Notes: generated by a model from the sequence alone, not told the origin. Shown: positions 7,933 through 60,788, counted from the stretch's first letter. The stretch is 64,000 nt of DNA from an uncultured Acidobacteriota bacterium (GCA_963700145.1 OY969474.1:832001-896000); one strand, 5' to 3'. Program-made: numbers and translations.

Positions 7933-7955
<23 letters not shown>

Positions 7956-10900: not shown

Positions 10901-11328
10901 TCGAGGGCGATGGTGGGGTGGCGCACCCGGTGGACGTTCTTGACCCCGGAGACGCCGCGCAGCCGGGCCACGTCGGCGGGCGAGACGGTCAGCGTGAAGC
11001 CGTTGTAGACCAAGGTGTAGCGCCGCTGCACCGCCGTCGGCAGGCCGGTCGCGCCCGGCACGGAGACCGTGGCGATCGCGGCCGGGATGCCGGCGGCGGC
11101 GATGCGGGTGAGCACGACGTTCTGGGCAGTGGTGAGCTGCGCGCGGTAGGCCGCGAGCGCGGCGTCGGAGACCGTCAGCCCTTGCTTGAGTTGGCGCGCC
11201 CGCCAGACCGCACCGGGCTCGCCCTGCAGCTCGACGATGACGCTGGTCGTGGTCGCCGCCCAGGCCGCGCCGCCCACGAACAGGAGCGCCAGCCCGGCAA
11301 CCAGGAAACGGAGTGTGCGAGAAGACAT
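7933..11328 (-). CDS. Secreted S8 subtilisin-like serine protease (I9 propeptide, PA domain, Fn3-like C-terminal domains)
   Basis: Triad VIDSG / HGTHVA / GTSMASPHVAG; oxyanion AAAGNSG; signal peptide from ATG 11328. Confidence 0.9.
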
Positions 11329-11464
11329 GTTGACGTCCCTCCCCAGGGTTTGGTGGTCGGGGAGGTGGTCCAACGCAGGCTGCCCCTCCCCTCGCCACTA
11401 CCCTAGGCAGGACGCCGCCGCCGGACCATGAGGAAGGCCCCCCAGGCCGGGCGGGGTGTTTCCC

Positions 11465-31499: not shown

Positions 31500-31589
31500 G
31501 TCCGGCCTCCTCGCCCGCGCGGGGCTCCGATCGGACTGCATTGAGATGGGAACGCTACGCGCCGACGATACGCCAGCGTCTATGGAGGG

Positions 31590-41028: not shown

Positions 41029-41610
41029 CTACTTGGCTGGGGGTTTCGAGTCGAGGAGCGCGAGAATCTCGCGAGCCGCTCGAAGGGCCTGTTCGATCCC
41101 CGCGCGCAGGGTTTCTACTCGCTCGGCGCCCCGAGTGTCAAGCCGCGGTGCCGGCTTCACGACCCGCGCGACGGGCGCCGGCGGCGCCTCGAGCGCGAGT
41201 TGCTCGGCGACCTCGGCGGAGTCGGCGCCGGCGTCGTCTTCGTCGGGCGCCGCCGCCGGCCCTTCCTCCGGCGCCTCGTCCTCACCCTCCTCCCCCACTT
41301 CCGCGCGCTCGACCTCGTCGGCGTCGTCCGGCTCCACCCGCCCCAGCGTCCCCGCCGCCAGCTCGCCTTCGAGCTTCTTCTTGGCGCCGGCGATCGTGTA
41401 GCCCTCGTCGTAGAGCAGCTCCTTGATCCGCCGGATGACCGCCAGCTCCTTCTCGTTGTAGACCCGCTGGCCGGAGCGGCTCTTGGCCGGCGACAGCGCC
41501 GGGAACTCGGTCTCCCAGTAGCGCAGGACGTAGGGCTGGATGTCGAGCATCCGGCAGGCCTCGCCGATCTTGTAGTAGAGGCGCTTCTGCACCCGCAGCC
41601 GCGACGGCAT
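41029..41610 (-). CDS. MerR family transcriptional regulator
   Basis: YYKIGEA...VLRYWETEFP...IKELLYDEGYTIAGAK; conserved ihfA-merR-tRNA-Pro arrangement. Confidence 0.9.
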   Translation of the reverse strand: MPSRLRVQKRLYYKIGEACRMLDIQPYVLRYWETEFPALSPAKSRSGQRVYNEKELAVIRRIKELLYDEGYTIAGAKKKLEGELAAGTLGRVEPDDADEVERAEVGEEGEDEAPEEGPAAAPDEDDAGADSAEVAEQLALEAPPAPVARVVKPAPRLDTRGAERVETLRAGIEQALRAAREILALLDSKPPAK

Positions 41611-41613
41611 CGG

Positions 41614-41958
41614 CTACGAGCCCCGCGGCGGGCGCGGGAGGCGCGCCGGCGTCATCACGTCGCGCAGCCGGCGGGCCGGGCGGAAAGCGAGGCCGCGGTG
41701 GGCGGGGATGAAGATCTTCTCGCCGCTCACCGGGCTGACACCGGTGCGCCCGGGACGCGAGGTGATCTCGAAGGTCCCGAAGTTCTTGATCCGCACCCGC
41801 CGGCCGCTGCCCAAGTTGGACTTGACGGTCGAGAAGATCGCCTCGACGATCTCCGCCGCCTCGTCCTTGGTGATCCCGCCGTGGCGGTCGTAGACCACCT
41901 CGACGAGGTCCGCCTTGGTCATGCCCGGCCGCGCGCCCGTGCTCTTCCTCGTGGCCAT
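41614..41958 (-). CDS. Integration host factor / HU family DNA-binding protein
   Basis: MTKADLVE...VRIKNFGTFE...P.SGEKIFIP...FRP. Confidence 0.9.
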   Translation of the reverse strand: MATRKSTGARPGMTKADLVEVVYDRHGGITKDEAAEIVEAIFSTVKSNLGSGRRVRIKNFGTFEITSRPGRTGVSPVSGEKIFIPAHRGLAFRPARRLRDVMTPARLPRPPRGS

Positions 41959-42037
41959 CCCCGGTCTCTCGGAACTGAAAGCGTTGCCTCAAGTATAGGC
42001 GCCCAACCCGGCACTGGGCAAGGCGCGGAACGCCAGC

Positions 42038-45000
42038 CTACGCCCCGGAGGTCTTGGCGATCAACGCTTGGCTCAGAACGACGACTTCGGGGTACTTCGG
42101 CGACAGCTCGACGAGCAAGCCAAGCCAGTCCGTGACCTGGCCGGAGTCGAGCCGGCGGGCCTCGCGCAGGGCCTCAAGAGCGAGCTCGGCCTGCGAGCGG
42201 AGGGCAAGCGTGACCGCGCGATGGAACCACACCACAGCCTGCACCGCGGGCGGTACGTCGACGAACAAGCCGAGGCTGGCCAGCGCCTCGAGCGCGGCGA
42301 TCTCGTCGCGGCGGGCGAGGTTAGCCAGAAGCTCGGGAATGTGAGTCGGGTCGCCTAGGGCCGCGAATGCCGAGTCCTCTTGCCCGGAGCGAGCGAGCGC
42401 CAGCAGCGCCGCGTGCACGCCGAGGTTGGGATCGTCCGGGTGTTGCTCTTGGAGCGTGGCGAGAACGGCGGCGCCATCGCCCAGCAGCTCTTCGCGGCGC
42501 TCCGCCAGCAGGCTCCGCTTGGCCGCGAGGTCCGCGGCCATCCACTGGATCACGAGGTCTCTAGCGAGGAGCGGCCGGTAAGCCTCGTCAACGCCGTCGG
42601 CGCGGGCCTGTGCGAGAAGCTGCCGGAAGCCTTCGATCTCCGAGGGATGCCTGAAGCCGAGCGCGATCTCTTCGAGCGCCAGATCGGTCGACTCCGCCAG
42701 CAGCTCTCCGGCGTGCTCGGCGAAGAACTGCCGTGAGGCCGTGGCCGGGGAGGCCGCGAGCCACTGCTCGACCCGTTTGACATGCTCGCTTTCCAGTGCC
42801 AGCCATGCCGGCAGCGCCTCGCCGGTCGCCTCGCGCCAAGCGGCGTCGAACCAGCTCGCGCCGCGTCCGCGGAGCTGCCGAGCGGTCGCGTGCACGTCCG
42901 CAAGCAGATCGCGGCGGGCCGCCGGAGCGAGCGCGAGGGCGGCCAGCAGGTCGTCGACGGTGCGGCGGTCGTCGGGATCGCGCGTTTGGGCTTGCCGCAG
43001 CCGGAGAAATGCTTGCTGCGCGGAATTGCCCACCACCTCGATCGTGAGCCTCCATGCTTCTTCCGCGGACACCGCATCGCCAACCTCCCGGTATCGGCGA
43101 TCGAGGTTGTGGAGTGCTTTGGCCAGGCCGAGGGGAAACTCCGGGTTGGCGGCGGCGAGGTCGCGGTAGATCGCGACAGCCTCCTCAATCAGAGCAAGGG
43201 CCTCCTGGCGACGATCGCACTCGCTGTAGGTGTTGCCGAGATTGTTCAGCGCGAGGGCGAGGCGCGGCAGCAGTCCGGGGTTGACGGCGGCGAGATCGCG
43301 GTAGATCGCGACGGCCTCCTCGCTGGGAGCGAGTGCTTCCTCGTGGCGACCGAGTACGGCGTGGCCGGTGCCCAGGTTGTTCAGCGCGCGGGCGAGGTCT
43401 GGAAGGAATGCGGGGTTGGTGGCAGCGAGGTCGCGCCAGATCGCGACGGCCTCTTGGGTAGAAGCGAGAGCCTCCTGGCCGAGTTCGTCGTGGTGCCCGG
43501 CCAGATTATTCAGAGCGCTCGCGAGGTCCGGGAGGAACGCGGGATTGGCGGCGGCGAGATTGCGGTAGAGCACGACGGCCTCTTGGGTACAAGCGAAGGC
43601 CTCCTGGCGGCAGCCGAGTTGGTTGTAGCGGCCGCCCAGATTATTCAGAGCGCTCGCTAGGTCTGGAAGGAACGCGGGGTTCGTGGCAGCGAGGTCGCGG
43701 ACGAGCGCGACGGCCTGCTGAGTAGAAGCGAAGGCCTCCTGGCGGCGGCTGAGCTCGCCATAGCGGTTACCCAGGCTGTTGAGCGCGGCGGCTAGATCCG
43801 GGAGGAATGCGGGGTTACTGGCGGAGAGGTCGTGGTAGATCTGGACCGCCTCCGCGCTGGGAGCGAGTGCCTCCTGGCGGCGCCCGAGTTGGCCGTAACT
43901 GGCGCCCAGGTTGGTGAGCGCCATGGCGAAGTGGGGAAGGAACGCGGGCTCGTCGGCGTCGAGATTGGAGTAGATCGCGACAGCCTCTTGGGTAGAAGCG
44001 AGCGCCTCCTGGCGGTGGCCGAGCTCACTGTGGCGGATGCCCAGGTTGTTCAGCGCGCGGGCGAGGTCTAGGAGGAACCCGGGGTTGGTGGCGGCGAGGT
44101 CGCGGTAGATCGCGACGGCCTCCTCGGTGGGAGCGAAGGCCTCCTGGCGGCGGCCGAGTTCGCTGTGGCGGTTGCCCAGGTTGGTGAGCGTGCTGGCGAG
44201 GTCAGGAAGGAACCTGCGGTTCGTCGCGGCGAGCTCGCGGCCGATCACGAGGGCCTCCTCGGTGGGGGCGAAGGCCTCCTCGCGGCGACCAACCTCGCTG
44301 TAGCGGCCGCCCAGATTGTTCAGAGCGCTTGCTAGGTCCGGAAGGAACGCGGGGTTGGTGGTAGCGAGGTCGCGGTAGATCGCGACGGCCTCCTGAGTAG
44401 AAGCGAAGGCCTCCTGGCGGCGGCCGAGCTCGCCGTAGCGGGTGCCCAGGTTGTTGAGCGTGCCGGCGAGGTTTGGAAGGAACGCGGGGTTCGTGGCGGC
44501 GAGGTCGCGGTAGATCGCAGCGGCCTCCTCGGTCAATGGGAAGGCCTCCCATCGGCGGCCGAGCTCGCTGTAACGGCCGCCTAGGTTGTTGAGCGTGCCG
44601 GCGAGGTTTGGGAGGAACGCGGGGTTCGTGGCGGCGAGGCCGCGGTAGATCGCGACAGCCTCTTGGGTCGATGCGAAGGCCTCCTGACGCTTGCCGACCT
44701 CGCCGTAGCGGTTGCCCAGGTTGTTAAGCGCGCCCGCGAGGTTCGGGAGAAAAGCGGGGTTGGCGGCGGAGAGGGCGCGGTAGATCTCGACCGCCTCTTG
44801 GGAGGGAACGAGGGCCTCCTGCCGGTGCCCGACCTCGCTGTAGCTGGCGCCCAAGTAGTCAAGCGCGCGGCCGAGGCCGGGCAGGAAGGCGGGGGCGTCG
44901 CGGTCAGCCAGCCGGCGCACCAACTCAATGCCTGGCGCGCCGCTCTCGGCACCATGGAGCCAGGCATAACGCCAGAGGTAGGTGGTGGCGGTGGGAGGCT

Positions 45001-46981
45001 CACCCGCTTCGAGCAGGACGAGATAGTGATCGATCAGCGCCTTCGCCAGCGTTGTCGCCTTGGTTTCCTTCACAGCGTCTTCGGGTTCGGCGAATCGCGA
45101 CTGCAGATGCTCAGCCAGCCGCTGGTGGGACAGGCGATAGACGCTCCGGCCGCCTTCGCCCGCTTCGACCACGTACCGGCCGGCCAAACCGAGAAGCCAG
45201 TAAATGTCGTCACGCGTGTAGATAGTTGATGCTGGCGAGAGAGCGGTCGCCGCGATCGCCCAGAGATCGTCGGGCAAGCCGGCGCCCTTGCCCCAAGTCA
45301 GCGTCGCGAGAACTTCGAGCGCCGCCTGCGGGAGCTCGACGTCGTGCCGGCGGAGCGGCGGGATACGCGCCAGGTCGCGGTCAAACGCGTCGGCAAGGGT
45401 CCGACTGAGTTGTGTTTCCCACCCGGCGGTCTCCGTGTCGATGGGTTCGGCTCGGAGCTGAGCGGTGATGACCCTGGCGAGCAGGAAGATCCCTTCGTCC
45501 TCTTCGCTCGCCAGGCGAAGGATGGCTCTCGCGATCTCAGCCGGGTCCATGGCGGGCGGTCCGGCGGCAGCGAGGCGTTTCGCCACGTAGCCGTGCAGGT
45601 CTTCGCGAGTAGCCTCGCGGAGAGCCTCCTCGCCGAGGTCTACCACCTCGGTGGGAGCCAGGCGCTGAATCAGCGAGGCCCCTCCGTCCGGGGCCGCCAC
45701 CTCGCGCGTACCGATGAGCACTCTGGAGACGGGCGCGAGCAGACGAAGGATGTCGTCGGCGATCTGCCATGCACCGTGGCCCGCCTCGTCGAGGCCGTCG
45801 ACCACGATGAGCGGGCGGCTTCTGCTCCGCTCGATGTCGCCTAGAAGGTCTCCGCGATTGCGCGGGCCGGATGGGTTCGACGGCAGCAGGCCGATGCGCA
45901 CGAGCTGCTCGTCGATCGCTTGCACAACCTGTTCGCCGGTAAGGCCGCGCGCGTGCACGTGGGCCTGCACCGAGCCTTCGCCGGGGTCCGCGTGTTCGAG
46001 CGGGCCGTGGCTGAGGAGCAGCGCACGCTCGGCGGGGTTCGAGAGGCTTACGATCCTGCCGACCACGGCTGACTTGCCGGAGCCGGCCGGTCCCGTCACC
46101 ACCAGGATGCCGGGTTGACGCGCTTGGAGCCACGCCACGATGCATGCCAGTGGCGTCACGCGCCCCGTGAAGTAGAAACCTTCCTCCTCCGGGTCGATCC
46201 CACGCGCCGCGAGGAGCAGGTGCTCGATAACCTGCGCCAGGGCCTGGGGATCGAAGTGCGGGTTCGGGAGCATCGTCCAGGCGTTGCCCTGCTGCACAAA
46301 GACGGGTTCCTGCTCCGCATCCCACTCCTTGATCAGTGCGTCGACGAGGTCGTCGCCCCGGACGCCGGCGTTGTGGGCGCTCCAACGGAGCATGAGCTCT
46401 GGCGTGCTCGGGCCCTTCTGGAGGAGCTTGCTCAAGCGCTCGGCGAAGATGCCGTCACGGGCTCGCTCGAGCGCCTGAGCGGACGTCACTACGCCGAACC
46501 ACACCCGCTCCGCGTGGGCCGGCCACGCCGCCAGGACCGCCTCGGCGACCTCAAGCGCCGGCAGTGCGCCGCCGCCTGAGTAGCAGGTGTCGAGGATGAG
46601 CAAGATCTGGCTGGCTCCGGTGCGCGCGGCCATCCCCGCCAGCAACTCGGGCGTGAGATCCGGAGCCCCGCTGCGCGGGCTGTTCCTGGCGATCAGGCGG
46701 AGTCTTCCCTCCGGTGTCCGATCGCCGTGACCCGCCCACATGAGGATCAGAGATCCTCCCTGCAGCAGCGAGTCGTTGGGAAGGGCCTCCTCGAGCAGTG
46801 GGATCACGTCCTCTCGGCGCGGATCCGGAATGACCCGCCCTTCGTACGACAGGCTCGTAAGCACCCCGCAGACTGCCTCAACGTCGGGAACTGCACGCGG
46901 CAGCGCCTCGTAGCTGTCGTAGGTGCCGACCGCCACGCCTACGAAGAGCCGAATCGGCCGTGGCTCCGGGGCCGGCGTCAC
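42038..46981 (-). CDS. NLR-like protein: caspase (peptidase C14) - STAND NTPase - TPR array
   Basis: WAGHG and ILDTCYSG His-Cys dyad; GPAGSGKS and VVDGLDEA; YRLSHQ; 13 or more TPR units; GTGA overlap with the upstream lipase. Confidence 0.85.
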   Translation of the reverse strand: MTPAPEPRPIRLFVGVAVGTYDSYEALPRAVPDVEAVCGVLTSLSYEGRVIPDPRREDVIPLLEEALPNDSLLQGGSLILMWAGHGDRTPEGRLRLIARNSPRSGAPDLTPELLAGMAARTGASQILLILDTCYSGGGALPALEVAEAVLAAWPAHAERVWFGVVTSAQALERARDGIFAERLSKLLQKGPSTPELMLRWSAHNAGVRGDDLVDALIKEWDAEQEPVFVQQGNAWTMLPNPHFDPQALAQVIEHLLLAARGIDPEEEGFYFTGRVTPLACIVAWLQARQPGILVVTGPAGSGKSAVVGRIVSLSNPAERALLLSHGPLEHADPGEGSVQAHVHARGLTGEQVVQAIDEQLVRIGLLPSNPSGPRNRGDLLGDIERSRSRPLIVVDGLDEAGHGAWQIADDILRLLAPVSRVLIGTREVAAPDGGASLIQRLAPTEVVDLGEEALREATREDLHGYVAKRLAAAGPPAMDPAEIARAILRLASEEDEGIFLLARVITAQLRAEPIDTETAGWETQLSRTLADAFDRDLARIPPLRRHDVELPQAALEVLATLTWGKGAGLPDDLWAIAATALSPASTIYTRDDIYWLLGLAGRYVVEAGEGGRSVYRLSHQRLAEHLQSRFAEPEDAVKETKATTLAKALIDHYLVLLEAGEPPTATTYLWRYAWLHGAESGAPGIELVRRLADRDAPAFLPGLGRALDYLGASYSEVGHRQEALVPSQEAVEIYRALSAANPAFLPNLAGALNNLGNRYGEVGKRQEAFASTQEAVAIYRGLAATNPAFLPNLAGTLNNLGGRYSELGRRWEAFPLTEEAAAIYRDLAATNPAFLPNLAGTLNNLGTRYGELGRRQEAFASTQEAVAIYRDLATTNPAFLPDLASALNNLGGRYSEVGRREEAFAPTEEALVIGRELAATNRRFLPDLASTLTNLGNRHSELGRRQEAFAPTEEAVAIYRDLAATNPGFLLDLARALNNLGIRHSELGHRQEALASTQEAVAIYSNLDADEPAFLPHFAMALTNLGASYGQLGRRQEALAPSAEAVQIYHDLSASNPAFLPDLAAALNSLGNRYGELSRRQEAFASTQQAVALVRDLAATNPAFLPDLASALNNLGGRYNQLGCRQEAFACTQEAVVLYRNLAAANPAFLPDLASALNNLAGHHDELGQEALASTQEAVAIWRDLAATNPAFLPDLARALNNLGTGHAVLGRHEEALAPSEEAVAIYRDLAAVNPGLLPRLALALNNLGNTYSECDRRQEALALIEEAVAIYRDLAAANPEFPLGLAKALHNLDRRYREVGDAVSAEEAWRLTIEVVGNSAQQAFLRLRQAQTRDPDDRRTVDDLLAALALAPAARRDLLADVHATARQLRGRGASWFDAAWREATGEALPAWLALESEHVKRVEQWLAASPATASRQFFAEHAGELLAESTDLALEEIALGFRHPSEIEGFRQLLAQARADGVDEAYRPLLARDLVIQWMAADLAAKRSLLAERREELLGDGAAVLATLQEQHPDDPNLGVHAALLALARSGQEDSAFAALGDPTHIPELLANLARRDEIAALEALASLGLFVDVPPAVQAVVWFHRAVTLALRSQAELALEALREARRLDSGQVTDWLGLLVELSPKYPEVVVLSQALIAKTSGA
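43145..44893 (-). repeat. Tandem 135-bp (45-aa) TPR repeat array, 13 full units plus a partial one
   Basis: Consensus PAFLPDLAxALNNLGxRYxELGRRQEAFAxTxEAVAIYRDLAATN; unit 11 lacks two codons. Confidence 0.9.
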
Positions 46982-48390
46982 ACCGCCTCCGGATCCCAGA
47001 CCAGCACGCAGGTGGTGACCGCCTCCACCCAGCCGGCGGCCGCCTCGCCGGCGTCGACGACGATGCGGTAGGCGCCCGGCGCGAGAGGGCCGAGCGTGCC
47101 GCGCCGGACCTCGCGCTCGCGGCGCAGGCTCGCGACCTCGACCGCCCTGCCGCGCTCGTCGATCGCTCTCGCCTGGAGGCTCAGCCGCTCCTCGCGCGCC
47201 GGCAGCGCCGCGACACGCACCACCTCGCCGGCGCCGACCATCTCGTCCACCTCGACGCCCAGCTCGACGCCCGGCTCCGCCCTGCGGACCACGGGGCTCG
47301 CAGTGAGGATGCCTTCGATCTGGTCGAGGACGGCCTGGTTGCTCTGCAAGGCACCGTGCTGGTCGGCGACCCAGTGGATGCCCGGCGCGTCGGGCCGCAA
47401 CCCGCTCGGGGTCGCCGATAGGCAGGGAACGGTGGCGTCGCCGCCTTCGTCGTCGCCGGAGATCGTGCCGACGGGCTCGATCAGCTCGCCGGCGACGCGC
47501 GCGGTCGTCGCCGTCGGCTGCCGGAAACCGACGATCGGGTGCAGGTCGTAGGCGCCCGGCGGTCGCGCGACCGCCGCCTGGTCGAGCTCATCGTGGAAGC
47601 GCATGGCGTCGGCGACCATGGCAGAGTCGAGCTCGGGGAGCTCGACCTCCGTCGTCTTGCGCAGCTCCCCCGCTGACTCGACGCAGGCGTACTCGGGTAA
47701 GAGCTGGTGCAGCGCCGGCAGGCTGCGGCCGAAGGCCGTGAGGTCGAGCCGCAGCGGCCCGATCCCCTTGCGGACGCCATTCACCAACTGGCCGAGCGCG
47801 TTGAGCGCGCCGCGATAGGGCGTGCCGAGGGTGATCACTTTGCGGGTGACCTCGGCCCCGCCCTCCATCTCGATGTACCAGCGGGCGACGAGACCGCCCA
47901 TTGAATGGCAGATGAAGATCAGCTTGGCGTCGGCGAAGCGCCCGCCCTGCGACCGCCAGCGCTCGAGCACCGGTTCGATGATCTTCGTGAGGCGCCGGGC
48001 GTTGTAGCGGTTCGACAGGCGCCAGTCGTAGGGCACGGGTAGGAGGTTAGGGATGCGGTCTGGGTCACTCGGTGACGCCTCGACGAGGTGAAACCGCGAG
48101 CGAAGCCCGTCGAGGAGCTTGCTGTAGCCGAGGTTCCAGCTCCACACGCCGGGTAAGACATGTAGGTCCGGCATGAGCGCCACTGGCTCGACCCCATCGT
48201 CCGGGTGCTCGTCACCGATCCCTGCCGGCAATGCGAGTTGACGGATTGAGCTGCCGAAGGTTGCGATGGCTCGAAGCGCGGCGCCCGCGGACGGCGCCCA
48301 GACAAGCCGGCCGTCCTGAGCCAGGGTGCTGCCCAAGATGCCCGGCAGGACGACGATCACGTCGCGGAGGACGTGAGGCCCGGCAGCCAT
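46978..48390 (-). CDS. Alpha/beta-hydrolase lipase/acyltransferase (LCAT/PGAP1-like) with C-terminal beta-rich extension
   Basis: PGILGS, YDWRLS, CHSMGG nucleophile elbow, LGTPYRG, GDATVP, QHGAL; no signal peptide; GGAGGAG RBS. Confidence 0.85.
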   Translation of the reverse strand: MAAGPHVLRDVIVVLPGILGSTLAQDGRLVWAPSAGAALRAIATFGSSIRQLALPAGIGDEHPDDGVEPVALMPDLHVLPGVWSWNLGYSKLLDGLRSRFHLVEASPSDPDRIPNLLPVPYDWRLSNRYNARRLTKIIEPVLERWRSQGGRFADAKLIFICHSMGGLVARWYIEMEGGAEVTRKVITLGTPYRGALNALGQLVNGVRKGIGPLRLDLTAFGRSLPALHQLLPEYACVESAGELRKTTEVELPELDSAMVADAMRFHDELDQAAVARPPGAYDLHPIVGFRQPTATTARVAGELIEPVGTISGDDEGGDATVPCLSATPSGLRPDAPGIHWVADQHGALQSNQAVLDQIEGILTASPVVRRAEPGVELGVEVDEMVGAGEVVRVAALPAREERLSLQARAIDERGRAVEVASLRREREVRRGTLGPLAPGAYRIVVDAGEAAAGWVEAVTTCVLVWDPEAV

Positions 48391-48482
48391 CCTCTCCTCC
48401 GATGCGGCGTCGAGGCGATCCCGCTGCGCGCAGGTGTCAGTGCGATTTTACCGCTCGGCGCAGGCTTGCCCGCCCGCCCGCC

Positions 48483-51400
48483 TTAGAGCGGCAGGTGGTC
48501 CGCGTAGCAGATCCGGCTTTCGACCTGGAACCCGCCGGTCGGGGACGGGTCGGCGGGGAGCCGCTCCCACTCCTCGACGACCACCCGCCAGTCCGCGTTT
48601 TCGCCCGGGCGACGCGGCGCCAGGGCCTGGGGCAGCTCGATCTGGCCGGCCCAGGAGACGACGGTGCCGTCGATGCCGAGGATCGGCAGGTCGACCTGCG
48701 CCACCGCCTGCCAGCCGAGGTCCGTGCCCACCGCCGCAACGCGCCGCTCGAGGCGGGCGCGGACGGTGCGCGAGGCTTGCACGTGGGCGACGAACGGCGG
48801 CGAGAAGATGAGCGAGGGCAGGAAGGTCTTCGGCACCCCGACCGGCCCGGTGACGACGACCCGGACGTGGCGGTCGTCGGGCCGCGTCAGCGTCGCCGTG
48901 CGCTCCGGCGTCAGCTGCGCGAAGTCGCACACCGTGACCGCCGAGAGGTGCATCCCGGGGTTGGAGTCGGGCTGGTAGCGGGCGACCGCGAGCCGGACGA
49001 AGGGCCAGAAGGCGGTGCGCGGGTCGAAGGCGACGTCGACGAACCAGAGCCCGCGCGCCGGCGAGAACTCCGGCTCGTAGCCGAGGACCCACACCGGGGG
49101 TGAGCCGGGGATGTCGACCAGGGAGCGCGCCGCCGGCGGGCCGACGGGACGGCCCGGGACGCGGCGGTCGTCGAGCCCGGTCAAGTGCAGGACGTCGGAC
49201 AGCGGCAGCGCCGCGCGGGCGGCCGGACCCTGCTGGGCCCACACCGGATCGGACGCCCACTGGCTGGTCGACTTCACCACCTCGGCGTCGTCGCTGGAGG
49301 CCAGGAGCACGCCGAGCAGCTCGCCGTCGCCGGTCGCGTACCACGGCCGGTCGAGGTAGATCCGCACGCCGCTGCGGCGGGTGCGGCGCAGCCCGAACGG
49401 CTGCGCGGGCTCGGTCCGCTCGTCCCACAGGAACAGCGGCAGCACGTCGCGCACCGCGGCCTTGGGCGGCCGCGCGCTGCTCAGGACGTTGAGCCGGCGC
49501 ACCGGGCCGACGAGCGACAGGTCGTCCACCGACGGCGTGACCAGCGGCGAGAAGTACTCCCGGTAGCGGGTCGTCGCCCGCACCCGGTAGTCCACCGTGC
49601 GGTGCTTGGTGTCGCCCATCTGGTGCACCGCCTTGTGGAGGCGCAGCGCGCCGCCGTCGGGGAGCGGCACACTGGAGTCCGTGCCGGCGAGCACGACGAG
49701 GTCCTCGTCGTAGCCGATCTCGGTGCCGCAGGCCGCGGCCACCACGTCCACCCGCTCCGGCGCCGGCTTGGCGACGTCGTCCACCCACTCGCTCCAGGCC
49801 CCTTCGACGTCGATCCGCTCGGTGCTCGGGCCGTGGACGTCGACGCCGCCGAACAGCGTCACCGCGGTGTCGAGGTTGGCGCGGATGGGCACCAGGATGG
49901 TCGGCCGCGGCACCTCGACCGGCTTGGGCACCGCGTGCACCAGGGTCATCTCGACCGACGGCGTCAGCCACCAGAACCAGCCGTCCGCGGCCGCCTCGGC
50001 GAGGATGTTGAGCGCGCGCAGCACCGGCGGCAGCGAGCGCCACAGCCCGAGGAGATCGAGCGAGGCGCGGTCCAGGCAGGACGACAGGCGCATCCGGAGC
50101 TGCTCGCCGGGCGGCACGGTGATGCGCAGCTCGGTGCCGTCCACCACCGCCCCCAGCTCGTCGCCGGCGGCGAGGACGAGCCGGTACGGCCGCGGCTCCG
50201 GCCAGGCGCCGGGGTAGCGCAGCGTGGTGCCTTCGACGGCCAGCAGGCCGGTCAGCCGGTGGTCCTTGCCGGCGTCCGGGAAGGTCAGCGAAATGCCGGC
50301 GGCCAGCGGGTCGGGCAGGTAGGGCACCACCAGCTCGTCGACGTCGTGGGCGACGTACTGCCCCGGGGTCGGCGGCTCGCCGCGCGGCAGCTCCTCGGGC
50401 GTCGCGTGCACCGGCTCCTCCGCCGTCGGCGAGAGGTGGAGCGTGACGCCGGGCTGCGGCAGGCGCTGCCCGGGGTTCGCCAGGTCGGCCACCGTGGTGT
50501 CGAAGAACGTGCCGGCCTCGCGCAGCGCCACCGCCAGCGCGGCGCGCACCGCGGCGGCCGAGCCGGAGCCGATGGCGGCGTCGAACATGCCGTGCAGCTC
50601 CGCCTCGAGCTGGCTGGTCTTGGGCGGTGCCAGGTGCCGCTGGCTGTCCTCGCCCCAGGCGAGGTCGACGGTCGGGTGCGCGGCGATCGTCGCCGGGACG
50701 TAGACCTCCGGCGGCACGATCGTGACCTCCAGGCCGCCCTCCTCCGCCGGCCCTGCCACGCCGGAGCGGATGACCAGCCGCTGCAGCGACTCGCCCTCGC
50801 TGAAGGCGTGCCGGGGCACGATGGCCGGCTCGATCACCGGGTCCCAGCGCAGGAACGGCCGCGGCGTCGTCACCGTCTGGCCGCTCTGGGCCACGGCCTC
50901 GGCGAGCGCCAGGCCGACGAAGCCGCGCTGCGTGCGCAGGTCGGTCGCCAGCGCGCGGCCGAAGACGGGCGCGGGTGTCTGGGCGTCGGTGCGGACCAGC
51001 AGGTGCGGCGCCTCGGCCGCCGCCACGTCGAAGGCGTTCTCGATCCGCTCCCGCCGCGCCGGGCCGGCGGCGCGCACGCGGGCGGCGCGGGCCGCCACCC
51101 GCGACACCACGAGCCGGTCGACGTCGGCGACGCCGGTGGGCTCGACCTCCGCCAGGCTCAGGCCCGGCACGCCGCGCCCCTCGATGGGGCCGGCGGCGCG
51201 CGGCGGGCGCAGCGCGCGCACCTCCTGCCGCACGACGTCCAGGCCGACCCGCGCCGACTCCAAGGCGGCCGGCACCGTCGCCTCGAGCGGCTTCGCCGCC
51301 AGCGTCGTGGCGGCGAAGGCGGTGACCGATTCCTCGATCGCGGGCCCGCCGCCGCTGTCGCCGTCCGGCGCGCCGGCGACGACGTGCGGCCGACTGTTGC

Positions 51401-53060
51401 CGGCCAGGTCGACGGCGTAGGCGCGGAAGGCGTAGCTCCGGCCGTAGCGGAGCCGCGGCAGCGTCCCGGGCTCGATCGCGGTGCGGCTGACCACCGGATT
51501 GACGGGGTCGGGGTCGGGCGGCGCCTCGTCGACCACTCGCTCCTCGCCGTCGACGTGGACGACGGTGCGTCCCGGCCGCGGCGCCGACAGCGACCAGCCG
51601 TCCCAGCCGGCCAGCACCTCGTGGGCGTTCTTGGGCGCCGCCGGCTGCTCGTCCGCCTGGGTCAGCGAGGCGCCCTGCAGGAACCCTTCGTCCGGGGCGT
51701 CGTCGAGGACCGCCGCGCCCTCCACCTCGACGTGCAGCCGCCGCAGGTGCAGCGAGTGCCAGTCGTCGCTGACGTCGTCCCAGACCTCGAGGCGCAGGCC
51801 GCGGCTGATCTGCTCCTGCAGCAGCTGGGCCGCGGTGCCGGAGAGGAGCGCGGCGTCCTTCGCCGCGGCGCCCTGGAGCCGGTCGTGGAGGACCTGCGCC
51901 CGGTCCTGGCGGGCAATGGCGAGGCCGGTGGCGCGCAGGCTGGGCGGCGCCGAGTTGACCCGGTCGCCGTTGTTCTCGATCGCCAAGAGGCGCGGCAGGT
52001 TGCGGACGTGCATCTCGAGCTTGAGGCCGGCGGCGTCGGGATCGAGGTCGAGCACCGTGAAGGTCTTCTCGTCGCCCAGGCGGAGCATGCCGTGCGTCCA
52101 CTCCGCCGAGGCGGCCTTGGCGGTGAAGGTCTGGCCGGAGACCTCGCAGGCGGTGCGCGGCTGCACGTTGATCGAGTTGGCGAGGTCGGGCACCACCAGG
52201 CCGGCCTGGATCCACACCAGGTCGGCGAGCTGCGCCACGTCGTCGACCCGCAGGTCGATCACCAGCCCGAGCCGCCGCAGCAGCGGCGAGAGGTCGCCGA
52301 GCATGCCGGCGCGCTCGTGGAAGTCGGGCTCCGGCTTGCGCACGGGAGGCGGGACCGTGCCGGGCGTCGGCCGCTCCTGGTAGGGGCGCTGCTCCTCGTC
52401 GCGCTGGTAGTAGCGGCGGGCGCGGTGCAGGTCGGCGACGAGCTGGAGCAGCGGCTGCCCCGTCGTCGACGTCGCGTCGGGGCCCAGGAAGCCGCCGTTG
52501 GTCAGGGCGTCGAGCCGCTTGGTGAGGTGCGCTTCGAAGGAATGCTTGTCGACGGGATGCTCGACGAGCTGGGCGACCGACAGCCGGTGCCCGATGTCGA
52601 CGCCCAGGGTGTTCAGCAGCGGCCGGGTGAGGGCGTTGCCGGCGACGGTGGGCGCGGCCACGGGGGAGGAGTACATCGACACCCCGTGGACGAAGAGGGC
52701 GTGCTGCTGCATCCGGTGGGCCGGGAAGGTGCGCCAGGGCACCGCCGTGTGGTCGGGCGTCTGCCAGGGCCGCACCGCCAGCTCCGGCGGGAAGACCCGC
52801 GGCCAGAGCTCGGGCTCCAGCTCGTCGAGGAGCGGCGTCACCGCGATCGTGACGTTCGTGTTGTTGCTCTTCCGGCCGCGCAGGGTGAGCTGCGCGCCCG
52901 CCAGCCGCGCCGTCCAGTCGACGATGCGGAGGAAGTCCGCCACCACCCCCTCGGCGCCGTCCGGGGTGAGCCGGTGGGTGACGAAGAGCGAGACGTGGAA
53001 CGGCTCGCCGGGGTCCGCCGAGTACGGCAGCGCGGTGACGAGGAAGGACTCGGTCGCCAT
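48483..53060 (-). CDS. Giant hypothetical protein (1525 aa) with Ig/Fn3-like motifs
   Basis: Long ORF with a globular-protein composition; YAFRAYAVDLAGN and YRVRATTRY resemble Fn3 strands; no signal peptide; starts 3 bp after the upstream gene. Confidence 0.75.
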   Translation of the reverse strand: MATESFLVTALPYSADPGEPFHVSLFVTHRLTPDGAEGVVADFLRIVDWTARLAGAQLTLRGRKSNNTNVTIAVTPLLDELEPELWPRVFPPELAVRPWQTPDHTAVPWRTFPAHRMQQHALFVHGVSMYSSPVAAPTVAGNALTRPLLNTLGVDIGHRLSVAQLVEHPVDKHSFEAHLTKRLDALTNGGFLGPDATSTTGQPLLQLVADLHRARRYYQRDEEQRPYQERPTPGTVPPPVRKPEPDFHERAGMLGDLSPLLRRLGLVIDLRVDDVAQLADLVWIQAGLVVPDLANSINVQPRTACEVSGQTFTAKAASAEWTHGMLRLGDEKTFTVLDLDPDAAGLKLEMHVRNLPRLLAIENNGDRVNSAPPSLRATGLAIARQDRAQVLHDRLQGAAAKDAALLSGTAAQLLQEQISRGLRLEVWDDVSDDWHSLHLRRLHVEVEGAAVLDDAPDEGFLQGASLTQADEQPAAPKNAHEVLAGWDGWSLSAPRPGRTVVHVDGEERVVDEAPPDPDPVNPVVSRTAIEPGTLPRLRYGRSYAFRAYAVDLAGNSRPHVVAGAPDGDSGGGPAIEESVTAFAATTLAAKPLEATVPAALESARVGLDVVRQEVRALRPPRAAGPIEGRGVPGLSLAEVEPTGVADVDRLVVSRVAARAARVRAAGPARRERIENAFDVAAAEAPHLLVRTDAQTPAPVFGRALATDLRTQRGFVGLALAEAVAQSGQTVTTPRPFLRWDPVIEPAIVPRHAFSEGESLQRLVIRSGVAGPAEEGGLEVTIVPPEVYVPATIAAHPTVDLAWGEDSQRHLAPPKTSQLEAELHGMFDAAIGSGSAAAVRAALAVALREAGTFFDTTVADLANPGQRLPQPGVTLHLSPTAEEPVHATPEELPRGEPPTPGQYVAHDVDELVVPYLPDPLAAGISLTFPDAGKDHRLTGLLAVEGTTLRYPGAWPEPRPYRLVLAAGDELGAVVDGTELRITVPPGEQLRMRLSSCLDRASLDLLGLWRSLPPVLRALNILAEAAADGWFWWLTPSVEMTLVHAVPKPVEVPRPTILVPIRANLDTAVTLFGGVDVHGPSTERIDVEGAWSEWVDDVAKPAPERVDVVAAACGTEIGYDEDLVVLAGTDSSVPLPDGGALRLHKAVHQMGDTKHRTVDYRVRATTRYREYFSPLVTPSVDDLSLVGPVRRLNVLSSARPPKAAVRDVLPLFLWDERTEPAQPFGLRRTRRSGVRIYLDRPWYATGDGELLGVLLASSDDAEVVKSTSQWASDPVWAQQGPAARAALPLSDVLHLTGLDDRRVPGRPVGPPAARSLVDIPGSPPVWVLGYEPEFSPARGLWFVDVAFDPRTAFWPFVRLAVARYQPDSNPGMHLSAVTVCDFAQLTPERTATLTRPDDRHVRVVVTGPVGVPKTFLPSLIFSPPFVAHVQASRTVRARLERRVAAVGTDLGWQAVAQVDLPILGIDGTVVSWAGQIELPQALAPRRPGENADWRVVVEEWERLPADPSPTGGFQVESRICYADHLPL

Positions 53061-53063
53061 GGC

Positions 53064-56000
53064 TCAGGCCGCCGCGAAGGCGGCGCAGTAGGCGTCCCAC
53101 GCCGGTGCGCTGCCGTCAGGTTGGACGTCGAGGATCTCGGCAAACGTCGGGTCGCCGTTGGAGCCGGCGAGCCGGCGCTCGCAGGAGACGCTGACCGAGA
53201 AGGAGAAGAAGAAGATCTCGACCTCGATCTCGATCGAGGCGCGGCCGACCAGCTTGCCGGTGTCGAACTCGTAGGTCAGCGACAGCTCGAGCGTGATGGA
53301 GGCGGAGATCAGCCCCAAGACGTCGACCTCGCCGCGGATGCGGAAGTAGCCGGTGAGCGACCCCTTGTCGACCTCCAGGCGCAGGTAGATGCCGACCATG
53401 ATCGAGACGGAGCCGGAAGCGACGCCCAGGTTGATGGAGAGCGAGGCGCCGGCTTCGAGGGCCATCTCGAGGAGCACCAGCCCCTTGGGGGAGAGCCGGA
53501 TGCCGACGAAGCCGCCGCCGCCGATCATCATCACGGTCAGGCGGAACGGCTTCTCGCGGGTGCAGAAGAAGAAGCCGACGGTCACCGCCTCGCCCAGGAA
53601 CGGCACCCGCGCGTCGGCCCCCAGGCTGATGTTCTCCAGGCTGAAGACCCCGACCGAGACGTTGGGCAGCGCGATGTCGAAGCCGGCCGTCACGCCCTCC
53701 GGGCCGACGTCGACGTACGGCGGGTCGGCGAAGCCGTCGAAGGGGATCAGGTCCTTGAGGGTCTCGATGAAGGAGAGGACGCCGACGAACTCGATGCCGC
53801 GGAAGACGACGTCCACCTCGGGCTTGCGGCCGCTGGCGGCGCGGAAGGCCAGCCGGTCGAAGGCCAGCCGCAGCAGCGGCGCGCCGGGGAAGAGGTTGAG
53901 GGAGAACTCGCGCAGCTCGGCGAGGACGTCGGCGCCGACGCCGCCCGAGCCCGAGGCGCGCGCCTCGACCGACAGCAGCAGGCCGTCCGGGCGCACGACG
54001 AACAGCGCGTTGGCGTCCGGGCCCTTGGGGAAGTTGGTGAGCGCCGGCCGCCAGTCGAAGCGGGCGCGCACGCTCAGGCCCTCGGGGTCGAGGCCGTTGA
54101 CGAACGCCGTGATCGTCTCGATGGTCTCGGCGATGGCGGCCGCGTCGCGGATCGGCCCGAGGCCGTTGACCAGCCGCTCCAGCTCCGCCTTGACCGGCGG
54201 CGGCAGCGGCTGCTCGCGGACCACGGCGCCCAGCTCGTTCACCAGGTCGGCCAGGTCGTCCAGCACGCCGGAGACGGCGGCGGTGACGTCGGCCGGCGTG
54301 CTCGGCGTGTCGAGGGCGAGCAGGTCCCCCACCGCATCCACCAGCGCGGCGACGCGGGTCTGCAGCTGGCCGCGCACCGCCTCCAGCCGCGCCCGCGCCG
54401 CCTCTGCCTGGTCGCGCAAGGCGGTGGTGGCCGCCGCGGCGGCGTCCTCCGCCAGCCGCGCAGCGCTGCGCTGGACGGCGGCCTGCAGCGCCTCGAGGTC
54501 GGCGAGCAGGCCGGCGACGACGTCGAGCTGCTCGGTCAGGAACGCCGGCGCGCGGTCCAGCCCGAGCACGGCGAGGATGTCGGTGAGGTCGAAGAGCCCG
54601 AAGAGCTTCGGCAGCACCCCGGCGAGGAACTTCGTCGGATTGAACCGCTCCGCCGGCGGCTTGTTGACCAGGTCGTCGAGGTCGCCGACGGCGCCGAGCG
54701 CCCGGGAGAGGCCGCGCACCGGCAGGTCCGGCTGGATGAAGCCGCCGGAGCGGTCGGTGCCGCCGCCGAACGAGATCGTCGCCGCAGTCTTGAGGGCGAG
54801 GAAGACCTGCGGCTCGGCGTTCTTGCCGGTGAAGCCCAAGTCGAGGTAGGGCTGGGCGTAGCGAACGGTCGTCGTCGGCGACGCCGGGGCCAGGTGGCGC
54901 ATCGCGGGCACCACGACGTCGGCCTCGTCGAGCTCCGGCGTCGAGGTCAGCTCGCCCGGCTTGCCCGCCGTGCCGGTGAAGCGCAAGGCCACCGTCTCCA
55001 GGGCGGCGTCGCCCGGCTTGGCGCTCAGGGCGTAGGCGACGGACTGGCCGTTGCCGGAGATGGGGCGGTCGGGATCGTTGACGTACGCCAGGCGGACCTT
55101 GTTCCGCTCCGCGGCGTTCTTGCCGAGATGGGCGGCCACGAAGAGGAGCGGGGCCTGCAGGCGCACCCGCCGGCCGTCGTGATCGATGCAGTCGAGGGTG
55201 AAGCGGAATTTGGCCGACCCCTCGACGACGGGCCAGAAGATCTCGTCCCCCTGCACCACCTGCGGCGTCCCCGGCGCCAGGGGGTCGCGGATGTCCGGCG
55301 TCACCAGCGGCCGGATGCGGATCTCGCGGAACGGCATGCGGCGGTCCTCGAACGTCTTGACCGGCTCGCTGACGACCAGGAACTTGCGCTGGTAGAGGTA
55401 GGCCTTCGGGCCTGCCGGCTCCTTGATCTTGCGCTCGGTCACCTTGACCAGCGCGCAGCGGTGGCCGAAGCAGAAGAAGTAGCCCGGGTAGACCACGCGG
55501 ACGAACTGGTCGCGCCCCATCGGGGCTTCGTGGTCCCAGGAGATGATGCTCGGCAGCGCTTCGGTCGCGTAGGGCTCGATGTCCCAACTGCCGTGCAGGT
55601 CGAGCCAGGCGCCGAGGGCCGAGAGGTACAGCCGCTCCGCCTCGACCGGCAGCGGCACCGCGATCTCCGGGTCGGCGCTCTGGCGCACCAGGATGACGCG
55701 GTCGAGGCCGTCGAGGGACATGCGGAACGGCAGCAGGTTGTGCGCGGCCGGCTCGACGCCTTCCTTGTCCCGCGCCCAGATCGCGCGCACCGCCCGCTGC
55801 GGGTCGGCGCGCTCGTCGACGGTGACCTCGTCGTCCTTGACCCGCCGGACGCCCAGCCGGCTGTGCCACAGCTCGACCCGCTCGACGTCCGCCGGCGCGG
55901 CCTGCGGCGTCGTGGCGTGCGCGAACCCGCCCCGCGCGCTCGGCGAGAGGATCAGCCGGTACGGCGCCTCGATGGCGGTCTCGTCGGCGCGCGGCACGCG

Positions 56001-56924
56001 GGGGCGTAGGAGCCGCGGCCGGAGGCGGTCGGCCGGCCCCACCAGCAGGTCGCCCAGGCCGCCGGCGATGTCGCTGCGGCTGAGGTTGACGGCGCTCTCG
56101 CGGGCGAGGAGCTGCCGCGCGGCGCGCAGGGCGGACGCGGCGGCCAGCACGGTCCCGACCGACGCTTCCCCCTGGCGCGCGCGTCGGCCCCGCACGTCGC
56201 GCAGCACCAGGCCCGCGGCCGACCGCGCCAGCTCCAGGCCGCCGGGCAGCGTGACGATGACCAGGTCGCCTCCCCCGCCGAACGGGCCGCGGGACGCCGG
56301 GCGCGGCGTGGCGAGCGGGGCGACGAGCAGCGGCAGCCGCGACATGGCGGCGAGCACGCCCGCGCTGCTGAAGCCGATCCGCTCCCTCGCCGGCACCGCG
56401 TACACCAGCCGGGAGCCGCGGGCGGCCAGGACGTCGATCGGCGGCGGCTCCGGGGGCTCGTTGCCGGCATCGTCCGGGACCGCGCTCGGCGGCGGCGACG
56501 CCCCCGGCGCCGGCGCACTCGGCGGCAAGGTGGTCGGAGGAACCTTCTGGTTGTTCTCGAGGGCGTAGAAGGCTTCCTCGCCCAGGTGCTGGAACGGCAG
56601 CCGCACCTCCAGCCGGGCGTTGCTGCCCTGCGGCACCAGCTCGGGGCCGTCCGCGCCGTCGGCCATCTCCAGGCCCCACCCGAGGACGTCGAGGACGACG
56701 AGGTCGAGCGGGCGCAACACCCGGAACGCGTGCGAGGGACGGGGACCGCTCGGGGCGGCGAGGTCGCCGAACCCCGGCGCGAGGCCGGCGACGCCGGCAA
56801 GGCTCAGGTGGGGCGCGACCGCGAGGCGGAGGGGGTCGCCGTCGAACCGGACGAGCGCGACGTTCGCCTGCCGGCGGCTGCGGCGGCGGGGACTGCCACG
56901 GCGGGGAGGGTGTCTTGCGCTCAC
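53064..56924 (-). CDS. Giant hypothetical protein (1286 aa) with helical insert and amphipathic beta-rich C-terminus
   Basis: Long ORF; Ala/Leu heptad-like segment; the last ~300 aa alternate hydrophobic and polar residues (GSVSIMVGIYL, ASITLELSLTY, IEIEVEIFFFSFSVSV). Confidence 0.75.
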   Translation of the reverse strand: MSARHPPRRGSPRRRSRRQANVALVRFDGDPLRLAVAPHLSLAGVAGLAPGFGDLAAPSGPRPSHAFRVLRPLDLVVLDVLGWGLEMADGADGPELVPQGSNARLEVRLPFQHLGEEAFYALENNQKVPPTTLPPSAPAPGASPPPSAVPDDAGNEPPEPPPIDVLAARGSRLVYAVPARERIGFSSAGVLAAMSRLPLLVAPLATPRPASRGPFGGGGDLVIVTLPGGLELARSAAGLVLRDVRGRRARQGEASVGTVLAAASALRAARQLLARESAVNLSRSDIAGGLGDLLVGPADRLRPRLLRPRVPRADETAIEAPYRLILSPSARGGFAHATTPQAAPADVERVELWHSRLGVRRVKDDEVTVDERADPQRAVRAIWARDKEGVEPAAHNLLPFRMSLDGLDRVILVRQSADPEIAVPLPVEAERLYLSALGAWLDLHGSWDIEPYATEALPSIISWDHEAPMGRDQFVRVVYPGYFFCFGHRCALVKVTERKIKEPAGPKAYLYQRKFLVVSEPVKTFEDRRMPFREIRIRPLVTPDIRDPLAPGTPQVVQGDEIFWPVVEGSAKFRFTLDCIDHDGRRVRLQAPLLFVAAHLGKNAAERNKVRLAYVNDPDRPISGNGQSVAYALSAKPGDAALETVALRFTGTAGKPGELTSTPELDEADVVVPAMRHLAPASPTTTVRYAQPYLDLGFTGKNAEPQVFLALKTAATISFGGGTDRSGGFIQPDLPVRGLSRALGAVGDLDDLVNKPPAERFNPTKFLAGVLPKLFGLFDLTDILAVLGLDRAPAFLTEQLDVVAGLLADLEALQAAVQRSAARLAEDAAAAATTALRDQAEAARARLEAVRGQLQTRVAALVDAVGDLLALDTPSTPADVTAAVSGVLDDLADLVNELGAVVREQPLPPPVKAELERLVNGLGPIRDAAAIAETIETITAFVNGLDPEGLSVRARFDWRPALTNFPKGPDANALFVVRPDGLLLSVEARASGSGGVGADVLAELREFSLNLFPGAPLLRLAFDRLAFRAASGRKPEVDVVFRGIEFVGVLSFIETLKDLIPFDGFADPPYVDVGPEGVTAGFDIALPNVSVGVFSLENISLGADARVPFLGEAVTVGFFFCTREKPFRLTVMMIGGGGFVGIRLSPKGLVLLEMALEAGASLSINLGVASGSVSIMVGIYLRLEVDKGSLTGYFRIRGEVDVLGLISASITLELSLTYEFDTGKLVGRASIEIEVEIFFFSFSVSVSCERRLAGSNGDPTFAEILDVQPDGSAPAWDAYCAAFAAA

Positions 56925-60677: not shown

Positions 60678-60788
60678 ACGCACTCCTGCCTTGGAGAGAA
60701 ACGGCGATTTGTTTGACTGCAGTTTAAGCGTACTGCCAAACGGCCGGATGGGTCAACGGCTGCTGAACTACGGTAAGGTTACAGGACC

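Follow-up and report, generated by a model that had tools for sequence, protein, structure and literature searches.

A lipase gene coupled to a caspase-STAND-TPR gene in an uncultured Acidobacteriota bacterium: a candidate two-gene cell-death module

A 64,000-nucleotide (nt) stretch of DNA from an uncultured Acidobacteriota bacterium (GCA_963700145.1 OY969474.1:832001-896000), referred to below as the window, was analysed with a focus on two adjacent minus-strand genes. The first gene, P0001, encodes a lipase-type hydrolase of 470 amino acids (aa). The second, P0002, encodes a 1647-aa protein, hereafter the sensor, which joins a caspase-fold domain, a nucleoside triphosphatase (NTPase) of the STAND type (signal transduction ATPases that have numerous domains), an array of tetratricopeptide repeats (TPR) and a helical tail. 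Their arrangement suggests a cell-death or immunity module in which the protease would license the lipase. The features of the locus are listed below; coordinates were counted on the window, and the catalytic codons were re-read from the DNA.

48445..48450 (-): TAAAAT hexamer resembling a -10 box, 54 nt upstream of the lipase ATG; weak evidence
48391..48400 (-): strong Shine-Dalgarno-like sequence GGAGGAGAGG, abutting the lipase ATG
46978..48390 (-): lipase gene P0001, 470 aa; open reading frame (ORF) with a Pfam LCAT match
47296..48390 (-): hydrolase core and cap, aa 1-365; structural alignment and invariant triad
47902..47904 (-): codon of the lipase Ser163, checked
47437..47439 (-): codon of the lipase Asp318, checked
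47356..47358 (-): codon of the lipase His345, checked
47269..47295 (-): inter-domain linker of the lipase, PVVRRAEPG, aa 366-374; candidate protease site
47281..47283 (-): codon of the lipase Arg370, within the linker
46981..47268 (-): C-terminal beta-sandwich of the lipase, aa 375-470, macroglobulin (MG)/CARDB-like in a predicted model
46978..46981 (-): GTGA overlap of the lipase stop and the sensor GTG start, read from the DNA
42038..46981 (-): sensor-protease gene P0002, 1647 aa, with caspase, STAND NTPase, TPR array and helical tail
46202..46981 (-): caspase-fold domain, aa 1-260; invariant His/Cys and AlphaFold2 (AF2) model
46727..46729 (-): codon of the sensor His85, read from the DNA
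46583..46585 (-): codon of the sensor Cys133, read from the DNA
44882..46201 (-): STAND-type P-loop NTPase and helical arm, aa 261-700; motifs and Pfam matches of homologues
46070..46093 (-): Walker A, GPAGSGKS, aa 297-304
45785..45811 (-): Walker B, LIVVDGLDE, aa 391-399
43143..44894 (-): repeat array of the TPR_10/TPR_12 type, 14 units with a 45-aa period
42041..43051 (-): C-terminal region, aa 1311-1647, conserved; matches a 'TPR end-of-group' model

Both ORFs were found where an initial annotation, made by a model from the sequence alone, had placed them, and they are taken to be coding because their GC content at third codon positions (GC3) is of the coding type (0.90 for the lipase gene and 0.82 for the sensor gene, with 0.97-0.98 in the neighbouring genes). 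The GTGA overlap between the two genes also read as that annotation had described it. The TAAAAT box, which had been pointed out as well, is present in the DNA, but a sigma-70 consensus promoter scan of 41500..48800 did not call it. The sole sigma-70-like site called in that interval is located at 42021..41992 (-), just past the sensor stop and upstream of the HU gene; since it sits between the two, the HU gene probably has its own promoter.

P0001 passed the gathering score of the Pfam family LCAT (PF02450) with 41.8 bits against a cut-off of 21, and an NCBIfam scan of the protein gave no match. The sole solved relative returned by a sequence search of the PDB was the group XV (lysosomal) phospholipase A2 (LPLA2; E 1e-3). 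The nucleophile, Ser163, lies in an HSMGG motif, and together with Asp318 (GDxTVP) and His345 it is invariant in 43/43 sequences of the homologue alignment. In the AF2 model (predicted local distance difference test, pLDDT, 85.8; predicted template modelling score, pTM, 0.90), residues 7-365, comprising the core and cap, aligned with LPLA2 (4x92; Z 23.8, root-mean-square deviation (rmsd) 3.9, 311 aligned), and the fold was also similar to those of LCAT (Z about 22) and Tle4 (Z 20.5), a phospholipase toxin of the type VI secretion system. The likeness to these three enzymes extends over the whole catalytic part with the same Ser-Asp-His order, and the triad spacing is presumably similar to that of LPLA2. 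The differences are an identity of 15-20%, the lack of a secretion signal in the window protein, and a partner that is a protease-sensor and not an immunity protein; in addition, LPLA2 and LCAT have no MG-like domain.

The initial annotation had noticed an extra C-terminal domain of about 100 aa in the lipase, and the model and the MG alignment showed that it is real, a beta-sandwich of about 95 aa that is separate from the hydrolase core. Residues 375-465 are all-beta in the model, and residues 372-467 aligned with the MG domain from the alpha-2-macroglobulin of Salmonella (4u48; Z 10.7, rmsd 2.5, 91 aligned), with Foldseek also matching the domain to 2p9r and 3idu. At the other end of the protein, the first strand of the fold begins at residue 11 and the LPLA2 alignment at residue 7, which leaves no room for a signal peptide. 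Thus, of the 'cytoplasmic lipase-type hydrolase' first proposed, the lipase type was borne out by the LCAT match and the intact triad, whereas the cytoplasmic location is a reasonable inference from the modelled start of the fold. The lipase family is large, with 1708 proteins at E <= 1e-3 among 8000 scored candidates, and its length is uniform (mostly 450-490 aa among the 120 matches listed). By sequence and model, P0001 is an LCAT/LPLA2-type, phospholipase-like alpha/beta-hydrolase for which phospholipase/acyltransferase activity is predicted.

The sensor has a tripartite layout of caspase (aa 1-260), NTPase (aa 261-700) and TPR units (about aa 690-1310), followed by the C-terminal region. 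Its caspase domain scored 19.8 bits against Pfam Peptidase_C14, below the cut-off of 21.4 (E 7e-4), and the best NCBIfam match was to 'caspase, EACC1-associated type' (NF047832) with 38.7 bits, far below the cut-off of 140 (E 7e-10). Both His85, in an xGH motif, and Cys133, in a DxC motif, are invariant in 35/35 sequences (34 loci plus the window). The AF2 model of the domain (pLDDT 91.4) retrieved the MALT1 paracaspase and caspases 1, 3, 7 and 9 as top Foldseek matches (probability 1.00, template modelling score 0.53-0.60, E 6e-10 to 1e-7), in agreement with the intact caspase His-Cys dyad of the initial annotation.

The NTPase and the TPR array, which had likewise been assigned to the 1647-aa protein, were recovered as Walker A/B motifs and 14 TPR-like units. 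All of the sequences compared (32/32) keep the Walker A/B residues G, K, D and E unchanged. Against the STAND-class Pfam models, the window sensor scored below the cut-offs (AAA_16 31.3 against 32.6, NACHT 23.6 against 26.7, nSTAND1 22.6 against 27.1), and the 32 homologues gave matches to AAA_16 (32/32, best E 7e-15), NPHP3_N (32/32), nSTAND1 (28/32) and NACHT (22/32). A PDB profile search with the NTPase alignment returned generic P-loop ATPases only. The TPR units follow a 45-aa period with one spacing of 43 aa; on the DNA, Tandem Repeats Finder reported a 135-nt unit present in 13.0 copies (76% matches), and Pfam TPR_10 gave 171 bits. The C-terminal region of about 340 aa scored 43 bits with NCBIfam TPR_END_plus, above the cut-off of 32, and is 26-45% identical across homologous loci; atlas look-alikes of this tail were TPR proteins with scores below 0.9, which are to be read as a lead only.

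Linkage of the two genes was assessed at 82 lipase loci from species-representative genomes (12 from a first search and the best 80 of 319 relatives, 10 being shared), and partners were assigned by tblastn with pieces of P0002. A P0002-like gene lies directly beside the lipase gene on the same strand at 45 of these loci, in lipase-first order as in the window at 15, in sensor-first order at 29, and as one fused ORF in the remaining case; at 8 of the 45, the contig ends early enough that the TPR/tail part alone is visible. At 12 more loci, the flank contains some other caspase or CHAT gene. Pfam confirmed this for L006 (a divergently oriented neighbour coding for a 638-aa Peptidase_C14 protein), for L008 (351 aa) and for L066 (CHAT); the remaining 9 were assigned because tblastn found them similar to the proteins of L006 and L008. 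No protease was seen in the flanks of the other 25, although several of those outside the 20-member clade described below stop at a contig edge (L024, L036, L062, L063). A Pfam scan of the flanks of five loci without a tblastn caspase match revealed metabolic or regulatory genes and no protease at four, and the CHAT gene at the fifth (L066).

The initial annotation had made its proposal depend on co-conservation of the two genes, and the neighbourhood comparison found the same partner, in either order, at 45 of the 82 loci. That an ordinary esterase merely happens to lie beside an unrelated TPR protein is very improbable: some family members do stand alone, but the adjacency recurs in several phyla with two gene orders and one fusion, the two genes of the window overlap by 4 nt, and at the 12 further loci the lipase has another caspase-type gene for a partner. 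The lipase and the sensor very probably form a functional unit, and the comparison shows them to be passed on jointly, by descent as well as by transfer.

Two further variants were seen among the loci. A sister lipase clade is accompanied by stand-alone caspases and not by the STAND partner (L006, L021, L027, L031, L034, L059 (Ilumatobacteraceae), L008 and L011); these caspases are about 640 aa long and divergently transcribed, and/or about 350 aa long and a few genes away, and at L008 and L011 genes for a GMC oxidoreductase and gluconate 2-dehydrogenase subunit 3 lie between lipase and caspase. The sensor gene is seemingly split at L005 (487+1113 aa) and L049 (1026+654 aa), for which a frameshift, a sequencing error or decay could account.

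A close precedent for such a pair is given by Evans et al. (bioRxiv 2025.11.14.688446). According to that preprint, LcCaspase cuts the 296-aa LcHydrolase after Arg73 and Arg117 (R-G sites, conserved in 161 homologues), the resulting fragments kill E. coli, and the proteases of its modules are often fused to WD40, STAND or repeat sensors. Kaur et al. (2020) state that caspase domains in NTPase-centred conflict systems are 'always' accompanied by a neighbouring alpha/beta-hydrolase gene, and Kaur et al. (2021) list alpha/beta-hydrolases as presumed membrane-lipid effectors. On the basis of established biology of STAND proteins and nucleotide-binding leucine-rich-repeat-like receptors (NLRs), together with the precedent of Evans et al., the following mechanism can be proposed. 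A trigger would bind the TPR array of the sensor, and NTP-dependent oligomerisation would bring the caspase domains together and thereby activate them. The caspase would then license the latent lipase by site-specific cleavage, a cut at the linker Arg370 releasing the beta-sandwich domain. The activated lipase would degrade membrane phospholipids, and the cell would die or halt before the phage completes its cycle.

We favour the reading that the locus as a whole is a horizontally mobile two-gene, NLR-like regulated cell-death/immunity module with a caspase-licensed lipase, and give it a probability of about 0.55. The architecture, the conserved linkage and the close experimental precedent make this mechanism the most likely one, with the cleavage step, its site, the trigger and the target lipid filled in by analogy. 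Taken separately, it is probable that the pair is a conflict or cell-death system, and the chance that cleavage by the caspase is what activates the lipase lies slightly below even.

Several observations on protease-free lipases, on the putative cut and on the genomic surroundings weigh against this reading. In the lipase tree (a quick IQ-TREE with 80 rows, from which L011, L012 and L076 were dropped as too short), 20 of the 25 protease-free lipases form one Intrasporangiaceae/Dermatophilaceae clade nested among linked clades. These solo lipases retain the triad and the C-terminal domain as well as Arg370 and the K208-G209 loop. When five solo-lipase genomes were searched (four from the clade, with Streptomyces fuscus, L028, as the fifth), four gave only distant partial matches to the caspase (best E 1e-13) and one gave none. 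The lipase can thus exist without its partner. The members of the clade (L053, L057, L058, L060, L063, L065, L067-L075 and L077-L081) are situated amid metabolic genes and may be domesticated or differently regulated.

The fused locus points in the same direction. In Lentzea alba (L012, 4962-8921 (+)), a single ORF of 1319 aa consists of an unknown N-terminus of about 326 aa, a caspase-like domain without the His/Cys, an NTPase-like region without the Walker A lysine, and a lipase part that keeps the triad and lacks the C-terminal beta-sandwich. Having lost these residues of the caspase dyad and of Walker A, L012 argues for physical coupling and not for cleavage. In a rival account, two effectors act and no zymogen exists. 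On oligomerisation, the STAND protein would recruit the uncut lipase or activate it allosterically, the MG-like domain possibly docking on the sensor, and the caspase would cut other targets, proteins of the host or the phage. The fusion fits this account, since docking would become redundant in a single chain that has also lost the caspase dyad, Walker A and the C-terminal domain of the lipase; in addition, Evans et al. describe one caspase-like protease that protects without a dedicated effector. On the other hand, L012 is a single divergent case (36-37% identity), the solo lipases retain the C-terminal domain though they have no partner on which it could dock, and in those protease-effector pairs that have been studied by experiment, the protease has the neighbouring effector as its substrate. 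We regard this account as unlikely.

With regard to the position of a cut, residues 364-376 are the only long inter-domain linker of the lipase and have no secondary structure in the AF2 model. The initial annotation had guessed at cleavage in this linker ('...SPVVRRAEP'), and position 370 within it is indeed basic in 75/75 lipases, comprising 44/44 STAND-linked, 11/11 other-caspase-linked and 20/20 solo proteins. Because the 20 protease-free lipases keep the Arg equally, its conservation does not prove a cut site, and this lack of specificity for linked lipases is also compatible with the rival account of an uncut lipase. The residue that follows Arg370 is variable, being mostly A or G in STAND-linked lipases and D, E or P in other-caspase-linked ones, and only four alignment columns (41, 52, 243 and 359) are kept in linked and changed in solo lipases, none of them plausible as a site. 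Analogy gives two different specificities for the window caspase, as LcCaspase cuts after Arg and the EACC1-type caspase KrAvs12 is reported to cut at a putative Asp. A cut at Arg370 is the best single candidate and yet, taken by itself, rather doubtful. A second candidate cut motif is [RK]208-G209, located in the loop that follows helix 192-204. It was rejected because it does not discriminate, being present in 28/44 of the STAND-linked lipases, in 10/11 of those linked to other caspases and in 20/20 of the solo ones. Complex prediction with two copies of the caspase domain and the lipase gave an ipSAE of 0.00 in both runs, which, the runs having been made without controls, weighs neither way.

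To place the window module among known systems, its lipase was compared with an LcHydrolase orthologue, P0122 (296 aa), from Lysobacter sp. Root690 (L098), which is preceded by a 606-aa Peptidase_C14 gene. BLASTP between P0122 and P0001 aligned only 37 residues, covering the nucleophile and the following TLGxP strand (E 0.037), and hhalign of P0122 against the 43-sequence lipase profile aligned 36 columns with 83% probability. P0122 has no Pfam family, whereas P0001 is an LCAT protein of 470 aa with an MG-like C-terminal domain. Unlike LcHydrolase with its two R-G sites, P0001 has no RG dipeptide in residues 1-162; the only invariant RG in its family is at 193-194, in a GTPxRGA motif after the nucleophile strand. 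The window caspase matched the Lysobacter caspase in the His-Cys core only (hhalign 30%). Membership of the window lipase in the LcHydrolase family was thus ruled out by the 36-37-residue match, the lack of Pfam overlap and the missing R-G sites. In the LcHydrolase orthologue itself (L098:2940-3830 (-)), the first cleavage motif is K-G and not R-G, and the second remains R-G.

What the Lysobacter capsici pair and the window have in common is a caspase-like gene adjoining a gene for a cytoplasmic Ser alpha/beta-hydrolase that is proposed to be a latent death effector, with both types occurring in Actinobacteria and Pseudomonadota. Therefore, the idea of the initial annotation that the caspase activates the adjacent hydrolase follows a logic that has been demonstrated for LcCaspase-LcHydrolase, but the window lipase belongs to another family and lacks the R-G sites. 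By this comparison the window module resembles that of Evans et al. in outline with a different hydrolase family, and as the general caspase-to-hydrolase logic was already published in late 2025, what is new here is the LCAT/LPLA2-type variant. The EACC1-KrAvs12 system, as described in the same preprint, is also similar in having an N-terminal caspase fused to a STAND sensor and a small partner gene directly upstream; its partner is a 114-aa pore-forming peptide, whereas the window partner is a 470-aa enzyme, and the window sensor falls well short of the EACC1-associated caspase model, as noted above.

More distant parallels exist. In fungal NLRs, a lipase-type N-terminus (SesB-like or patatin), presumed to be the executioner, is fused to a STAND NTPase with highly regular TPR, ANK or WD repeats; no protease stands between the two parts there, whereas in the window the lipase is a separate gene and the caspase holds the N-terminus of the sensor. 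Bacterial gasdermins reportedly lie beside caspase-like proteases that are often fused to NACHT, TPR or WD40 parts, and the effector, which damages membranes, is said to be inhibited by a C-terminal piece. In contrast to gasdermins, the window effector is a lipase-fold enzyme and not a pore former, and its C-terminal part is a folded beta-sandwich of about 95 aa and not a short inhibitory peptide. No gasdermin gene was found beside the window sensor, the adjacent gene being the LCAT-type hydrolase and the other neighbours encoding HU, MerR and large unknown proteins. A description of an LCAT-type lipase paired with a caspase-STAND-TPR protein was not found in literature searches, and the neighbourhoods in Fig. 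4A of Evans et al. may hold related forms.

The distribution of the module suggests transfer between lineages. The lipase was found in at least 319 species-level genomes, many of the carriers being filamentous or multicellular actinomycetes and cyanobacteria, and the window lipase belongs to a lipase-first clade counted as spanning at least five phyla, with members in the Thermodesulfobacteriota, Pseudomonadota, Acidobacteriota and Actinomycetota. When 30 relatives of the genome that holds the window were searched, 11 gave some match and the best was only 40% identical, whereas lipase homologues in other phyla reach 63-79% identity. The cross-phylum clade, the low best match in relatives and the GC3 below that of the neighbouring genes together indicate that the module is accessory and was horizontally acquired. 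The high-GC host is a diderm and not an actinomycete, because the window encodes a TonB-dependent receptor (CarboxypepD_reg, Plug and outer-membrane barrel; 28467..31541 (-)); the relatives of the module are mostly actinomycete.

The evidence for an antiviral function is divided. PADLOC, which the initial annotation had named as a check, gave no support, as P0001 and P0002 hit 0 families at E <= 0.01 among 5027 models (PADLOC-DB v2.0.0, including Avs) and three homologous sensors hit 0 families at E <= 1e-5. Pfam and PADLOC scans found no defence gene in the window flanks. In a survey of 10 homologous loci picked for phyletic spread, with 64 flank proteins, PADLOC matches occurred in the flanks of five. 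They comprise PifA-like proteins at L003 (E 5e-29) and L005 (E 2e-72), a PDC-S60/endonuclease and a PD-T4-6 kinase at L003, a GajB/UvrD-like protein at L082 and mad2/methyltransferase-like proteins at L015 and L007; the helicase, kinase and methyltransferase matches may be generic.

These surroundings bear on the possibility that the module is not antiviral. It might instead act in cell death during development or under stress, or in controlled lipid remodelling, with an endogenous cue as the signal for the STAND protein. Besides the missing PADLOC matches, this possibility is consistent with window flanks that encode HU, MerR, bPH_2 and large unknown proteins and no defence genes, with the housekeeping-type neighbourhoods of the 20 solo lipases, and with the many filamentous or multicellular carriers, a setting that Kaur et al. 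(2020) stress; Evans et al. also raise stress roles for some protease-effector modules. The patchy cross-phylum distribution without an orthologue in close relatives, a pattern typical of conflict genes, speaks against it, as do the repeat array, whose high regularity and internal similarity resemble those of NLR-type sensors, and the defence genes in the flanks of half of the sampled loci. Such a non-antiviral role appears improbable to us.

A more far-reaching form of the cleavage model would join these observations. In it, the lipases would constitute a widespread undescribed family of caspase-licensed LCAT/LPLA2-type phospholipase zymogens, in which the MG-like domain is a pro-domain cut off at the linker Arg. 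The sensor, NLR-like and equipped with a TPR array whose 45-aa units reshuffle rapidly, would activate its own caspase, and the freed phospholipase would dissolve the membrane of its own cell. The family would have evolved independently of the Lysobacter-type zymogen, with the protease-free Intrasporangiaceae clade as a domesticated derivative. We consider this joint reading speculative and, on balance, unlikely; if true, it would parallel gasdermin pyroptosis, with an enzyme as the effector.

That death effectors gated by proteases are a general design of bacterial immunity was established only very recently, and the module would provide a second, independent origin of the caspase-to-hydrolase link. 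The sole hydrolase studied so far has no known substrate, whereas the fold of the window lipase points clearly to phospholipids (LPLA2, LCAT, Tle4) and hence to the membrane as a testable target. The protease-linked and protease-free lipases offer a natural comparison of how a housekeeping-type enzyme becomes a gated executioner, and the TPR array, being very regular, may lend itself to studies of how sensors diversify.

As for the remaining genes of the window, those for HU, MerR and a bPH_2 protein lie downstream of the sensor. Upstream of the lipase on the same strand are two large genes, 48483..53060 (-) and 53064..56924 (-), which encode proteins of 1525 and 1286 aa with GC3 of 0.97-0.98 and without any Pfam or PADLOC match. 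They were rejected as part of the module, being absent from all related loci compared, with the window's own DNA (L083) as the only match. A second STAND-like NTPase of 1054 aa with NPHP3_N/AAA_16 matches is encoded at 14942..18106 (-), and an AAA_22 protein of 488 aa at 3892..5358 (+). Both NTPase genes lie in DNA of lower GC (0.58-0.64 against about 0.72), have no PADLOC match and may be other acquired islands. The window is also rich in presumably secreted proteases, with reprolysin-like metallopeptidases carrying PKD/Big domains at 57060..60683 (-) and 131..1738 (+) and, at 7933..11373 (-), a large S8 subtilase that contains a PA domain.

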